Virus record (IMG/VR): IMGVR_UViG_3300035208_002804
Coordinates: 1 to 64,000 of that record
Reading direction: 5' to 3' (one strand)
Length of the DNA stretch: 64,000 nucleotides
DNA from: a virus
Lineage: Duplodnaviria; Caudoviricetes
In this document: positions 12,383 to 60,515 of the stretch, one piece after another
Layout: each line of letters opens with the position of its first letter
Numbering within the stretch: the stretch's first letter is position 1
The notes under the pieces: generated by a model
The model's database searches: none
Told to the model about the DNA's origin: nothing
What the model saw: the letters and a program-made list of their open reading frames with translations, nothing else
Made by a program: the position numbers and the translations under genes

Positions 12383-12580
12383 TTTTATATATCAGTAAAT
12401 CATATAGTATAGTGCCGTCAGGATAATAAGTTAACAATGTCCGGTAGAACAAGGACAACAAATTCTTGTTCTACTTTTTGTTCTTATTAGCAGGTTGGGC
12501 GCTTTTTTGGCATTGTATTGCGTGATATCATTTCGTTCGCGCTTCGGGAACTCCTCACCACTCACCTTTCAATCCGACAT
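12383..12580 (+). ncRNA. dispersed element E1 (TATA + AGTGCCG + hairpin + U-tract); putative ncRNA or origin element
   Basis: TTTATATA 12384; AGTGCCG 12411; 10-bp hairpin 12444-12474; TGGCATT 12508 pairs with the 5' end; similar to four other loci. Confidence 0.55.
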
Positions 12581-12914
12581 GCTACATTTTAAACGGTGAT
12601 CTTGTGCGTCATCGTTGAAACTTTACCCGCGTTAACTACTGATATTTAAACACCACTATCAACGATCAAAAATATTTATATACTTCTAAAACCAACATAT
12701 AATAGTCCAAGAATGCTTAAGTTAGAAAGGTGTTCTTGTGATAAATCATAAAATGAACTGACTTATGGAATAGGATAGGTGGTTGGGTCAAATCCAATCA
12801 CTAATTATCTGCCCAATAGAGAGAAATGATCCAATCTCTCCCAACGGCAAAATTTGGGGTAATGTTGGTTCATCTGGAAACAGAAGAGGCATTACCCGAT
12901 AAAGTATACAAACC

Positions 12915-12992
12915 TCGGATCATAGTGTAAGTGTATAACAGCACGCCATATGATAAATGTGGTAATGGAGGTTCGCAATCCTCTTGATCCGA
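12915..12992 (+). tRNA. degenerate tRNA-like element (possibly tRNA-Ile(GAU)-derived)
   Basis: Acceptor TCGGATCA/TGATCCGA; D stem GTGT/GCAC; stem CCATA/TGTGG with loop TGATAAA; T arm GGAGG-TTCGCAAT-CCTCT; lacks D-loop GG and U33. Confidence 0.55.
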
Positions 12993-13006
12993 CTCTCTGC
13001 AATTTA

Positions 13007-13094
13007 ACTGGAATGGGGTAATGGTATCCCATATAGCGTCATGACAGAAAACAGGTTGGGCTATATAATTCACGTTCGATTCGTGATTCCAGTA
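13007..13094 (+). tRNA. tRNA-like element with expanded (22-nt) anticodon loop
   Basis: Acceptor ACTGGAA/TTCCAGT+A; D arm GGGT-AATGGT-ATCC; stem ATATAGC/GCTATAT; canonical T arm TCACG-TTCGATT-CGTGA. Confidence 0.6.
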
Positions 13095-13413
13095 TCAGCC
13101 CAGAAACACATAAGCGATGACAATCCAGCAACGGATTAGAGACGGGCTGACTACCAGTAGAATAGACTGGAGGACTTTCAACTGCTTTACCCCAAAATTG
13201 AAGCAGTCCTCGGCCACAGAGACTGGTGTGGCTTTGAACCGGAGATCGATGAACCGGAGGTTAAATTTATCCCATAAAAATTAAACAGCGGTCACATGCT
13301 GATAGTTGTGAAGTGGTTGTTAACCCGGATATAGTTTGGGCAAGGACTAATTAAACGTTATAAAATCTTGCAATGGTTGTAAACTCCATCTGCGCAAATG
13401 GGGCAACTGTAAC

Positions 13414-13456
13414 AATGGGAGTTGGCTAATGATGGTCCGAATCCATCTTCCCGTTA
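13414..13456 (+). ncRNA. tRNA minihelix-like element (acceptor + T arm only)
   Basis: AATGGGAG/TTCCCGTT stem stacked on GATGG-TCCGAAT-CCATC; 9-nt linker TTGGCTAAT. Confidence 0.45.
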
Positions 13457-13913
13457 TTGGCCGGATAGGGTTCTCAAATCCCTCTGAACCTGAAGCCGGT
13501 GGGTTGTATTTGTTAAACATATTTCGCCATTCCGATCTAGGAACAACATGTGAGTTAAATGCCAACAATGTGTATGAATTGGATGAAGCATTTAAAATGT
13601 TGTTTCACCGTTATATTCCCAAGATAAGGTCATAGATTTCTCCGTTTAAATAATCTCGGTCACGACGCATCTATATAGGAGTTTGTAAAAAATATAGACC
13701 CTGTGGTTAATGGCTTTTCCATTTGGGTCATATAATGACTCTCCTTTATAGGAACACAATATGGTTTGGTGGGTGGAAATTGGTTGAATAAAACTGCCTG
13801 TTCAATCAATTCACCAAATCTCAATAGGGTAGTAACACGTTTTTCTATTTTCGTAATACTACAGTTGTAGTTATATTTTTATAGTTTAGATACTAATATA
13901 TAATCATTGCTAA

Positions 13914-57993: not shown

Positions 57994-58539
57994 ATGATGC
58001 TTAACAGATTTTATAATCGTGGAATGGATGAAGCAATTCTTGCATCAAAATATTCTACTTGTTTATCTACTCATTATGGTAATGCTCTATTAGATCCTTT
58101 AACTGGTTCTGTTGTTGCTGTCGGGCATAATGGAGCACCAAAAGGAAAGGAGCATTGCACTGATATTGGATGGTGTCTAAAAAAAGAACTTGGTTATGAT
58201 CATTTTCAAAATGGAGTAAATAACTGGGGCGGCTTAATCTCTTGTAGATGCTCGCATTCAGACGTTAACGTTATAATTCAAGCCGGTTTACGTGCTAAAG
58301 ACTGTATCATGTTTCTTTATGGTGAGCGTAATGGGACTCCTATTGTTCCACAACCATGTTTCTCTTGTGTTAAATTAATCATTAATGCTGGAATTAAAGA
58401 AGTCATAATTCGACCTAAAACAAAGTTCATTTCAATCGATCCATCTAAACTCTACGATTCGTATGTTGAAGAACTATATGCGCAAATGAAAGATCCTGAA
58501 ATTAAGAAAGTGAAAGGTAAAAAGAATGTTACACAATGA
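57994..58539 (+). CDS. dCMP deaminase-like protein (HSD instead of HAE)
   Basis: STCL..G..GHNGAPKG..HC..C..CSHSD.N..PCFSC..IINAGI. Confidence 0.8.
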   Translation: MMLNRFYNRGMDEAILASKYSTCLSTHYGNALLDPLTGSVVAVGHNGAPKGKEHCTDIGWCLKKELGYDHFQNGVNNWGGLISCRCSHSDVNVIIQAGLRAKDCIMFLYGERNGTPIVPQPCFSCVKLIINAGIKEVIIRPKTKFISIDPSKLYDSYVEELYAQMKDPEIKKVKGKKNVTQ

Positions 58540-58806
58540 AATTATCCCACGATATCTACGTTCATGTAAAGAATGTATACTTTGTATTGATAACGAGGAA
58601 GGGTATCCATATTGTCTTGAAAATTATTTAGTTCATGATGATGTGATTCAAAAATATCTTTACGAAAAACCAATCCAATGTGTTCGAAATTTAAACAGAA
58701 CTGAATATGAAAACATAACCGATAATATTACTATTGGTGAGGATCAGCACCCATAAAATCGAACCACTTTCTTTATATATTGTTTATTAATTATTTAACT
58801 CAATAA

Positions 58807-59202
58807 ATGGATAATAAAGAAAGTGTATATCAATTAATGAAAGATCTTGGTTCTCTTGAACAGCGAATGGAAAGCATGGAAAAGTTTGTTATTGCGTTAA
58901 ATAGCAAAAATTCAAGTGATATTAAAAAAGTCAATACACCAGAAGATGATCGTGAATTTTGTTATCCATTTCCATCCAATCCAGAAGACATTATCGATGC
59001 TACACCAAGTCATCTACGTTCAATCGACACTTCAGAATACAAAGTTTACATTGCCGTTCCTTTTCCAGAAGATGGAACAGATCCATTTCTATTCACTATA
59101 ACAATAACCAGAAAAGAACTTGACACTTACCTAAACCAAACTCCAGGAAAACAAGGAGAATACATCTACAAAATAACTCCAAGTTATGAACAATTTCTCT
59201 GA
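58807..59202 (+). CDS. hypothetical protein
   Basis: ORF after TATA box. Confidence 0.6.
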   Translation: MDNKESVYQLMKDLGSLEQRMESMEKFVIALNSKNSSDIKKVNTPEDDREFCYPFPSNPEDIIDATPSHLRSIDTSEYKVYIAVPFPEDGTDPFLFTITITRKELDTYLNQTPGKQGEYIYKITPSYEQFL

Positions 59203-59255
59203 AAAAGAGAATACTAAAGGAAAAGAATAGTAGAAAATAAATTTAATTGATAAAA

Positions 59256-59591
59256 ATGACAAATAATAAAGTTTACATAGCAGTATTATCACGAATCGAT
59301 TCAATAACCAATAGAATTACATTTTCAACAGTAATCAACGATTTTATTGAGACATTATCACCAGAACTATTACCTGATGAAAAAGAACTTGAAACTGGTA
59401 TTATGCTTAAACCATACCAAATTAATGCCGGATTCTTTCATAATGGTAAATTCATTCATGACAATCGCGCAATAACATTATACTTCAGATGGATAGAATA
59501 TCTGAAAACTAATAACATGTGGATGCCTTGGATGGACAATTGGACCGATGGAACTCTGTATCTCATGTATTCCAATAATGAAACGATGTAA
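59256..59591 (+). CDS. hypothetical protein
   Basis: ORF; start approximate. Confidence 0.5.
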   Translation: MTNNKVYIAVLSRIDSITNRITFSTVINDFIETLSPELLPDEKELETGIMLKPYQINAGFFHNGKFIHDNRAITLYFRWIEYLKTNNMWMPWMDNWTDGTLYLMYSNNETM

Positions 59592-60245
59592 TTGAAGGTA
59601 AAATTGACATTAGAGATAATAATTGATTCAAGGGAAAATGAATTTATTAAGAAGTGGCTACCTAAAGAATTTCCTGATGTAAAATTCGAAGTAAAAACGC
59701 TAATCGAAGGGGATTACCGTTCAGAACACGTAATTTTCGAAAGGAAGCGAATAGATGATTTGTGGTCTTCGATTCATGATGGGCGCTTTAGATCTCAAGT
59801 TTCCCGTATGACAACTCACCAATGTGATAAAGTTGTTGCATATCTTATCGTCGGTTCTATTGACGACTTCATTTACAAGATGAAGAAACTTCACATGAAA
59901 GCCGATGAAAACACTCTACACGGAGCAATAGCATCTCTTTTAGTTAGGGATAACATTAGAGTCATTCATTGCACTAATGAAAAACATGGACTAAAGGAAA
60001 TGGTTCGTGTTATGCAAAAAATAGAAGAAGACAATGAACTTAATATTCCCGCTGTTCGTGATCTGGACATGTTATTTGCTAGATTACTTAATGTTCCTAA
60101 AGATACATGGTTTGGAATTAAAGAACTTCATGGATCATCACTTTCTCATCTCTGTAGTTTATCATCCAAGGATTTCACCAAAGTAAAAGGAATTGGTCCA
60201 AAACGTGCAAAAGACATAGTAAATTTTTTAAAAAATGGATGGTGA
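59592..60245 (+). CDS. ERCC4/XPF-family structure-specific nuclease with HhH
   Basis: IDSRE, GDY, ERKRIDD, DGR..Q, KGIGPKRA. Confidence 0.9.
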   Translation: MKVKLTLEIIIDSRENEFIKKWLPKEFPDVKFEVKTLIEGDYRSEHVIFERKRIDDLWSSIHDGRFRSQVSRMTTHQCDKVVAYLIVGSIDDFIYKMKKLHMKADENTLHGAIASLLVRDNIRVIHCTNEKHGLKEMVRVMQKIEEDNELNIPAVRDLDMLFARLLNVPKDTWFGIKELHGSSLSHLCSLSSKDFTKVKGIGPKRAKDIVNFLKNGW

Positions 60246-60379
60246 AAATATAAGTAGAGGATTTGGAAGAGATATAATAGTTTTATGACACCATTTTATT
60301 TACCCAATCTTTTTCACATTAACTATTGTCTATATTAATCATATACAACATTTTATTTATCCTTCTTTTTCACATTAAG

Positions 60380-60515
60380 TTTATATACTGTTAGGACAAA
60401 TAATATAGTGCCGCCTCCATATAACAGTTGATAATAAGAAAGCATTGAAACTTCTTTCTTTGTTTTCTTTTTGTTTTGTTATGAGTTTTTGAGCATTTGT
60501 TACTTGCGTCTGGTT
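60380..60515 (+). ncRNA. dispersed element E5
   Basis: TTTATATA 60380; AGTGCCG 60407; AAGAAAG/CTTTCTT hairpin; U-tract; TTTTTGAGCATTTGTTACTTGCGTCTGG. Confidence 0.55.

Follow-up and report, generated by a model that had tools for sequence, protein, structure and literature searches.

Dispersed promoter-driven hairpin elements as candidate transcription-primed replication start sites in large archaeal tailed viruses

The 136-kb genome studied here (G000; overall GC 32.7%), from a virus of anaerobic, probably methanogenic archaea, carries 11 copies (E1–E11) of a single family of units that lack an ORF and possess a promoter of their own. As the elements sit at flips in strand composition, they most likely mark RNA-primed start points of DNA copying or else form a new family of small viral RNAs; that they are transcription-primed replication start sites acting in cis is a reading we favour tentatively, at somewhat less than an even chance. 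Five copies lie in the window, the whole 64,000-nt stretch under analysis, with the following features in window coordinates:

12384..12413, plus strand: E1 promoter, TATA 8-mer (12384-12391) followed by a conserved stretch rich in A/T that ends in ATAGT
12414, plus strand: E1 predicted start, a G
12414..12508, plus strand: E1 predicted RNA, with a 10-nt leader, a nested hairpin (12424-12489), a GC-rich tail and T6 (12503-12508)
16143..16173, minus strand: E2 promoter, TATA at 16173-16166, predicted start the G at 16142
16062..16142, minus strand: E2 predicted RNA, with a hairpin of 25 bp (seven of them G.U) spanning 16139 to 16090, the GTTAGGAAG junction and a GC-rich tail
34082..34112, minus strand: E3 promoter, TATA at 34112-34105, predicted start the G at 34081
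33990..34081, minus strand: E3 predicted RNA, with a hairpin spanning 34076 to 34036 and a tail rich in CG
47303..47333, plus strand: E4 promoter, TATA at 47303-47310, predicted start the G at 47334
47334..47400, plus strand: E4 predicted RNA, with a hairpin (47342-47376) followed by a tail that contains TTTT and AGCATTTGT
60380..60409, plus strand: E5 promoter, TATA at 60380-60387, predicted start the G at 60410
60410..60505, plus strand: E5 predicted RNA, with a hairpin of the long form (60422-60481) followed by GTTATGAG-T5-GAGCAT

The earlier note had recognised these five from TTTAWATA followed, 27–28 nt after the first TATA base, by AGTGYMG, and all five were recovered at the positions and on the strands it gave (five matches in all, 0.26 expected; at least five in 0 of 100 shuffles). 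The five are real, but five is not the family total, the sixth copy already sitting 100–230 nt past the end of the window. The 19-mer common to E2 and E3, the TTTT..GCATT..GT tail common to E1, E4 and E5 and the continuation of E1–E3 into tracts containing CG were all found again, while the ~13-kb spacing proved true for E3–E4–E5 alone; across all copies the distances are irregular, and the regular spacing is a coincidence. All copies are intergenic, many of them between co-oriented genes. A mini-ORF (ATG AGT TTT stop) visible in E5, E7 and E11 was rejected because most copies and the relatives do not have the ATG.

Two complete relatives, whose TerL proteins are 49% (G001) and 42% (G004) identical to that of G000, carry about ten copies each: 10 in G001 and ~10 covariance-model matches in G004 (best E 1.7e-7). 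Single copies occur on the related contigs L124, L128, L157, L075, L147 and L127. Between G000 and G001, five loci are syntenic and co-oriented, among them E3 with the G001 copy at 22154(-) and E4 with the copy at 30435(+), so that copy number, position and orientation are conserved across diverged viruses. Whole-element alignments made with MAFFT did not agree in structure, and the covariance models were therefore seeded from the uniform G001 copies. A model built from G001 copies alone recovered E4 (E 0.011-0.022), and E2 was matched by models R1 (E 0.05) and R2 (E 8e-7, with E2 already in the R2 seed); the long forms E1, E5, E7 and E10 are overlooked by the models. The Rfam check proposed in the earlier note ended with no match: no Rfam covariance model scored above its gathering threshold, and only one of the four weak matches (E 0.4-5) overlaps an element, namely ctRNA_p42d over 29 nt inside the E3 hairpin (34035-34063; E 1.9; 22.9 bits, the gathering score being 50). 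When IMG/VR was searched for exact occurrences of the promoter or tail pattern, the matches stayed at chance level, and the sole match in a scan of genome contigs was a mis-binned viral contig.

Each copy has an archaeal TATA box with the predicted start ~23–24 nt downstream, a spacing equal to that between TATA box and ATG in the leaderless genes. TATA box and spacing are strictly conserved, and a conserved, family-specific box lies between the TATA box and the start. To judge from this arrangement, the RNA probably starts at the G of AGT|GC, and the AGT may therefore be absent from the RNA. Judged by sequence, a promoter would direct a transcript into each element, as at R-loop origins of the T4 type. 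The genes after E2 and E4 are indeed served by TATA boxes of their own, 22–25 nt ahead of a leaderless ATG, and E8 and its G001 orthologue stand alone, aimed at the 3' end of a convergent gene. The elements hence differ from ordinary 5' UTRs, as the earlier note had argued.

The predicted RNA begins with a short leader (6–12 nt, 65% A+C and 12% U in a T-rich genome) that varies in sequence between copies, and continues into a long hairpin, which begins 4–40 nt past the predicted start and whose pyrimidine 3' arm ends in TTGTTAKG. Purine-arm/pyrimidine-arm hairpin and T runs are present in every copy, and 17 of 26 copies have a T4-6 run no more than 20 nt away from the hairpin. Sequence conservation runs through GUUA and into the tail. 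In 11 of 11 copies the sense strand folds ~10 kcal/mol more strongly than the antisense strand (-31.1 versus -21.9 kcal/mol for E1), and 56 of 314 pairs (18%) in these copies are G.U; the much stronger fold of the promoter strand together with the G.U content places the structure at the RNA level. The hairpin arms covary: cognate arms pair at -17.0 kcal/mol and non-cognate arms at -11.4 kcal/mol (p<5e-5), and double-sided changes are found at 9 of 13 pairs compared with 3.7 in shuffles, a count reached in 0 of 500, with slid controls far below the true alignment. A second helix, between the 5' end and a downstream segment, had been proposed to be kept as the sequence varies, and this did not hold up: an element's own tail pairs no better with its 5' end than the tails of other elements (permutation p 0.07-0.89 in six settings, 26 elements). 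Since the cognate/non-cognate duplex test gave no signal, covariation of this helix seen by eye in G001 was dropped.

The evidence for the preferred reading lies in strand composition. At the elements, composition rises from left to right (G over C, T over A) in either orientation of the element. The raw GC-skew step is positive at 10 of 11 copies in G000 and 8 of 10 in G001 (p ~2e-4 each), and at 4-fold sites corrected for gene orientation the p values are 0.012 and 0.003, respectively; the step in G004 is weak and non-significant (4-fold p 0.44, raw p 0.12). Pooled over G000, G001 and G004, the 4-fold step is positive in 24 of 30 cases (p 7e-4). The outcome of step tests fits a unidirectional, orientation-dependent skew model as readily as a bidirectional one. 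The meta-profile climbs from a left-hand level of about -0.1 to a right-hand level of +0.2-0.3, alike for plus and minus elements, and T-A shifts in the same direction as G-C, while control intergenic gaps step down. Cumulative-skew minima fall at E1, E5 (a local minimum of the cumulative 4-fold skew), E8/E9 and E11, and in G001 at copies a, e and i/j; true minima coincide with only 4 of 11 copies in G000 and 3–4 of 10 in G001, and E4 and E6 have no skew step. The flips occur within co-oriented gene blocks, minus-strand genes inside plus blocks carry the plus-frame skew sign, and the skew of homologous genes tracks the side of the nearest element (Spearman 0.37, p 0.011). In elements on the minus strand, the shift also extends to the side upstream of the promoter, which argues against read-through transcription as the cause. 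The skew could nevertheless have a non-replication cause, or its sign could be reversed in the virus, in which case the elements would be termini.

Under the origin reading, a strong archaeal promoter would fire a short RNA of ~55–130 nt made up of the C/A-rich leader, the purine:pyrimidine hairpin closed by UAAC../..GUUA and the GC-richer tail. The RNA, or transcription itself, would prime or open the origin; the nascent RNA structure and T runs possibly set the 3' end of the primer, and the viral RNase H possibly trims it for PolB-PCNA. Each site would be a replication start point, the ~ten copies making a multi-origin genome, and the skew rise would reflect the direction of replication, with a leading strand rich in G and T as in cellular genomes. 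PolB, PCNA and RNase H genes are present in the virus, the RNase H gene (106153-106566 in genome coordinates) directly after E10; it adjoins an element in L128 too and, by homology of the RNase H gene, in G001. Three Pfam models detected no AEP primase, Prim-Pol or Toprim_2. The R-loop or primer-RNA origins raised in the earlier note gain real though indirect support from the composition steps, but two of its arguments fell away: the regular spacing, and an MCM-like gene at 60914-61945, for which the sequence gives a weak AAA match only. PHROGs, Pfam and PDB sequence searches gave no name for two proteins of the replication module, the 343-aa AAA protein and the 443-aa protein at 18261-19592. 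A region of iterons and inverted repeats with a classical look at 118–121 kb, near E7 and E11, might be the true origin.

The T4 origins oriF and oriG are R-loop origins of ~100 bp each, at which a promoter transcript primes leading-strand synthesis (PMC3016281). As proposed here, there are several origins in a large virus genome, the virus supplies polymerase and clamp, and a viral RNase H is implicated. The T4 origins, however, share little sequence, whereas here ~ten copies of one conserved family are found; the promoter here is archaeal, and origin activity is read from composition only. T4 also needs a downstream A+T-rich unwinding element. Here, the transcribed part (+1 to +150) is GC-richer than the genome (36–40% versus 32.7%), so that the unwinding element known from T4 oriF is missing, and its RNA is predicted to form a hairpin with covarying arms. 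In ColE1, the promoter-driven short RNA II governs primer creation by its own structure; unlike ColE1, the elements have no antisense regulator like RNA I. At mitochondrial LSP-CSB II, nascent-RNA structure stimulates termination and primer formation (PMC3488243). The likeness to both systems is a short promoter-driven RNA whose structure controls termination or hybrid, and hence the primer, and the differences are the many copies per genome and a purine:pyrimidine hairpin in place of a G run able to form a G-quadruplex.

The main rival explanation, a sizeable though minority possibility, is that the elements are ~ten paralogous genes per genome for small structured RNAs acting in trans. Hairpin and GUUAKGRG junction would form a scaffold for protein binding or stability, and specificity would reside in the 5' leader, which is C/A-rich and variable, or in the apical loop; seed-type regulators or decoys of Lsm, other RNA-binding or defence proteins are candidate roles. 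Own promoter, covarying RNA hairpin and T runs are typical anatomy of such genes, and hairpin plus T runs is how a folded small RNA that is released would be built, whereas for a persistent RNA-DNA hybrid it is not the obvious design. The leader (A+C-rich, U-poor and different in each copy) and the aim of E8 and its G001 orthologue at no gene speak for trans action too, as does the occurrence of the family in G004 without a clear skew step. The GAG-U5-GAG in which subfamily A terminates resembles an Sm/Lsm site, and a U-rich GAGUUUUUGAG site, of interest for the Sm/Lsm or aCPSF1 decoys suggested in the earlier note, is restricted to one subfamily (E4, E5, E7, E9, E11). As in Hfq/Lsm sRNAs, a short variable 5' single strand precedes a strong hairpin with U runs at or after the 3' arm, although here the U tail is not universal. 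Among known classes, C/D-box or K-turn sRNAs were rejected, as C (RUGAUGA) and D (CUGA) boxes and tandem G.A next to a 3-nt bulge are missing from the 26 sequences inspected (the G001 copies start with TGATGC but lack a D box, and their GA positions are unsuitable); neither H/ACA nor CRISPR-repeat mimic fits, and a bulge-helix-bulge tied to RtcB was dropped because G001 has the family yet gave no RtcB match, RtcB as bait retrieving distant RtcB genes only. Trans-acting RNAs leave the orientation-independent composition steps in two genomes unexplained, a coincidence not expected of Hfq/Lsm sRNAs, and no single-stranded motif is kept family-wide.

The elements might instead punctuate transcription, a terminator or insulator joined to a promoter delimiting expression modules and the RNA being a by-product, which we hold to be decidedly unlikely. 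The model would be the PeSLs of T4-like phages, dozens of dispersed intergenic promoter and stem-loop repeats with G-T/G-U pairs in large phage genomes, which carry the stem-loop ahead of the promoter or within it, where it terminates transcription arriving from upstream, which close with the ribosome-binding site and start codon of the gene that follows, and which cluster in hyperplastic regions and drive shuffling (PMC2839356). The elements likewise combine a dispersed intergenic strong promoter with a G.U-containing stem-loop in a large tailed-virus genome, often between co-oriented genes, and a 3' arm as T-rich as theirs would act as a terminator for archaeal RNA polymerase. Yet they show neither a stem-loop before or in the promoter nor an SD and start-codon end: the hairpin is transcribed from the element's own promoter and, lying downstream of the start, would terminate mainly the cassette's own transcript, and the next gene is leaderless with a separate TATA box. 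T runs are absent from the reverse strand, positions are stably syntenic over deep divergence and outside hyperplastic regions, and conservation through GUUA and the tail exceeds the needs of a terminator. Steps of this sort could also be mimicked by skew that changes gradually from 5' to 3' along an operon, but promoter-proximal minus-strand genes in plus blocks show the plus-frame sign.

It is very improbable that the elements are origins at the DNA level, with a protein recognising or nicking the DNA hairpin and its CTTGTTA flank and the promoter incidental or merely activating: the skew steps fit this as well as the transcription-primed reading, a conserved motif stands at the hairpin base and the box between TATA and start could be a protein site, but stems so rich in G.U lose much of their strength in DNA form and on the opposite strand, six-frame searches gave no Rep_1 or Phage_GPA nickase, and TATA box and spacing show strict conservation. 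CTTGATA is the nick motif of pC194/phiX-type origins, from which the conserved flank differs by one base.

To our knowledge, replication start in archaeal viruses is largely unknown, and a virus-encoded structured RNA family of the same kind is present neither in Rfam nor in the literature searched. Should the elements prove to be origins, archaeal viruses would have their first multi-copy family of transcription-primed origins defined by sequence, and with it a direct handle on origin choice, primase-independent initiation and the saw-toothed skew of these genomes. The wider claim that a whole lineage of large archaeal tailed viruses uses ~ten dispersed origins of one new class, at which the cassette transcript primes or initiates PolB-PCNA synthesis and makes a dedicated primase unnecessary, we consider a minority possibility. 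If the RNAs act in trans, they would be a new, deeply conserved small-RNA family of ten paralogues in viruses of anaerobic archaea. Under either reading, the covariance model annotates the elements in related genomes.

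The sequence bears several marks of a tailed virus that infects an anaerobic archaeon. The full IMG/VR record (136,274 bp, 95% complete; the window is its first 64 kb, with a GC content of ~32%) has mostly leaderless genes with a TATA 8-mer 22-25 nt 5' of the ATG, and it encodes PolB and NrdD, each with an intein, RtcB, PCNA, an ERCC4 nuclease, an MT-A70 methylase and RNase H. Its large terminase falls into Pfam family MJ0330_N, and its relatives come from digester or fermentation metagenomes, some encoding histone-fold proteins. We infer a methanogen as host. The inteins of PolB and of the anaerobic ribonucleotide reductase NrdD (window 27752-31264 and 48000-51251) carry a LAGLIDADG domain, and inteins likewise occur in the terminases of several relatives. 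The RtcB RNA ligase (window 45696-46889) most closely resembles bacterial and phage RtcB clusters, and its homologue was not recovered in the complete related genome G001.

The five elements E1 to E5 described in the earlier note were all found at the reported positions and strands: the window holds five copies of the motif TATA, ~19 nt, AGTGY, where 0.26 are expected. Across the whole genome this pattern yields seven copies, and including looser members brings the family to 11, which a profile built on the 3' part sets apart (E <= 0.3) from noise (E >= 11). All 11 are intergenic.

Predicted RNA starts of the 11 copies (genome coordinates)
12414 (+), start of E1
16142 (-), start of E2
34081 (-), start of E3
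47334 (+), start of E4
60410 (+), start of E5
64198 (-), start of a further copy
88374 (+), start of a further copy
88796 (-), start of a further copy
~105797 (+), start of a further copy
118459 (+), start of a further copy
~121993 (-), start of a further copy

Each copy opens with a TATA box, followed by A/T-rich sequence with ATAGT at its end. Judged from the sequence, the RNA probably starts at the G of GC, 23-24 nt past the TATA 8-mer, a spacing at which leaderless genes have the A of their ATG. A C- and A-rich leader of 6-12 nt is followed by a hairpin closed by UAAC/GUUA, with a 5' arm of nearly all purines and a pyrimidine 3' arm containing T4-7 runs, and then by the junction KGRG. The tail is either GAG-T5-GAGCAT (E4, E5, E7, E9, E11 and partly E6) or of a GC-rich GGTTGTCGCGGC type (E1, E2, E3, E8, E10). 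The copies have no ORF in common. Rfam gave no family-level match and none at gathering thresholds; the one sub-threshold match that falls on an element at permissive settings covers 29 nt inside the E3 hairpin (E 1.9).

At window 10872-10974 (-), a weak covariance-model match (E 0.38) shows a hairpin with TTGTTATG at its end and lacks an upstream TATA box; it may represent a twelfth copy in decay, or chance. The genome has just two copies of the 14-mer ACAATACAGATCGA, at 105959 (+) and 121839 (-) (L071:1959 and L071:17839 on a partial stretch of the genome), each time ~160 nt downstream of a predicted element start (E10, E11). Immediately downstream of E1, the ORF-less stretch 12520-13900 holds a predicted tRNA-Met with a 15-nt intron (window 13007-13094, +), reported by ARAGORN only when introns are allowed.

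The hairpin is an RNA structure on the promoter strand, and the RNA-level facts on the family are solid. The sense strand folds far more stably than the antisense strand in each of the 11 copies, since 56 of the 314 predicted pairs are G.U. Among 26 members of the family, drawn from eight virus genomes and contigs, cognate arms pair at -17.0 kcal/mol against -11.4 for swapped arms (p<5e-5), and a member's own arm is its best partner in 16 of the 26. Double-sided changes affect 9 of 13 pairs in an alignment of 14 members, which is model-fitted and favours structure by construction, against 3.7 in shuffles (0 of 500 reach 9), and slid controls score less than half. The helix between the RNA 5' end and a downstream segment, proposed earlier, failed the type of cognate versus non-cognate test that the hairpin arms passed.

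Related contigs were reached via terminase homologues. G001 (143.5 kb, terminal repeats, TerL 49%) has 10 copies with their own conserved 16-nt box between TATA box and start, which ordinary G001 promoters lack. A covariance model built without G004, a second complete relative (127 kb, terminal repeats, TerL 42%), gave ~10 matches in it (best E 1.7e-7), and L124, L128, L157, L075, L147 and L127, all contigs, have one copy each. With G001 copies as its only input, a model recovered E6 and E4 at E<0.05, E9 and E2 at E<0.1 and, more weakly, E11, E8 and E3 (E 0.3-0.85). For E3, E4, E6, E8 and E10, G001 has a counterpart on the same strand, flanked by the same homologous genes; the E10 type lies 2-3 kb from the terminase gene and divergent to it in four genomes, and an RNase H gene comes after it. 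It follows that the family is old and keeps its positions, and that it is no mobile repeat of recent date.

One G004 copy lies inside the direct terminal repeat (C1:16-78 and 127149-127211; stretches L167 and L173) and is thus present at both genome ends. The copy on L124/L129 (CAZCND010000034.1) is a cassette of the E10 type; this 6.8-kb contig is filed under a 'Candidatus Saccharibacteria' MAG, its terminase is 77% identical to that of the present virus, and most likely it is a piece of a related archaeal virus that was mis-binned. A free-standing gene at genome 93951-95084 (L070:9951-11084, +) combines several HTH domains with a LAGLIDADG-like endonuclease part (PHROG 'endonuclease'), and its G001 homologue adjoins a cassette (G001 123399-).

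Strand composition tends to change at the elements. Measured as the 3 kb to the right minus the 3 kb to the left, with the element itself left out, the raw GC-skew step is above zero at 10 of 11 elements here and at 8 of 10 in G001; random position sets reached the observed mean step in ~2 of 10,000 trials. At 4-fold sites with gene orientation removed, the plus frame is G-rich to the right of the nearest element and not to the left (p 0.012 and 0.003), in plus and minus genes separately. Within 2 kb of the elements the meta-profile climbs from about -0.1 to +0.2-0.3, and the shift persists over 4-6 kb; the profile is similar for elements on either strand, and T-over-A moves with G-over-C. Element-free intergenic gaps step downward on average. 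Cumulative curves have minima at E1, E5, E8/E9 and near E11, and at three element sites in G001. The flips at E1 and E8/E9 fall within co-oriented gene blocks and real minus-strand genes inside the 14-54-kb plus block carry the plus-frame sign, which argues against transcription or an operon gradient as the cause. Co-oriented homologous tail genes have opposite 4-fold G-C bias at genome 69-88 kb and G001 58-77 kb, in agreement with an extra G001 element at 57 kb, and over 48 homologous pairs the skew difference tracks the predicted side (rho 0.37, p 0.011). G004 agrees weakly, with shallow minima at elements and positive steps at 5 of 9 (4-fold, p 0.44) or 7 of 9 (raw, p 0.12); pooled 4-fold steps are positive in 24 of 30 cases (p 7e-4; p 0.003 with close pairs merged).

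At least five direct TAGTTACC repeats flank E7 (L071:14217-14620 and 16227-16880; genome 118.2-118.6 and 120.2-120.9 kb), 8 of the 10 genome copies of this 8-mer lie within 118.2-122.5 kb, and three modules of 17-nt inverted arms stand between E7 and E11. The 118-121-kb region, near a skew minimum, looks like a classical iteron origin or control region.

We rank first, tentatively and at less than even confidence, that the elements are transcription-primed or transcription-activated origins, because the composition is that expected of bidirectional origins. PolB, PCNA and RNase H are consistent with such a role, which also fits, weakly, the undetected primase (three Pfam models, AEP primase, Prim-Pol and Toprim_2, found none in this genome). 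T4 has several promoter-based origins within one virus (PMC3016281), and a primer can arise from nascent-RNA structure and termination, as mitochondrial CSB II shows (PMC3488243). Against origins, a hairpin with T runs resembles a released RNA, true skew minima occur at some copies only, G004 is weak, and the transcribed part has a higher GC content than the genome, so that the unwinding-element feature of T4 is absent.

A family of trans-acting small RNAs is a strong rival, possible if somewhat doubtful, although a small-RNA gene offers no obvious reason for composition steps at its loci. A leader or transcription-punctuation role is argued against, as the earlier note did for ordinary leaders, by the separate TATA boxes of the downstream genes, which start at ATG, and by the absence of a co-oriented gene ahead of E3, E7 and E8 (an arrangement kept in G001 for E8). 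The PeSL cassettes of T4-like phages (PMC2839356) differ from the elements in every positional feature. The elements may act in cis or in trans, and the origin and small-RNA readings could both be true.
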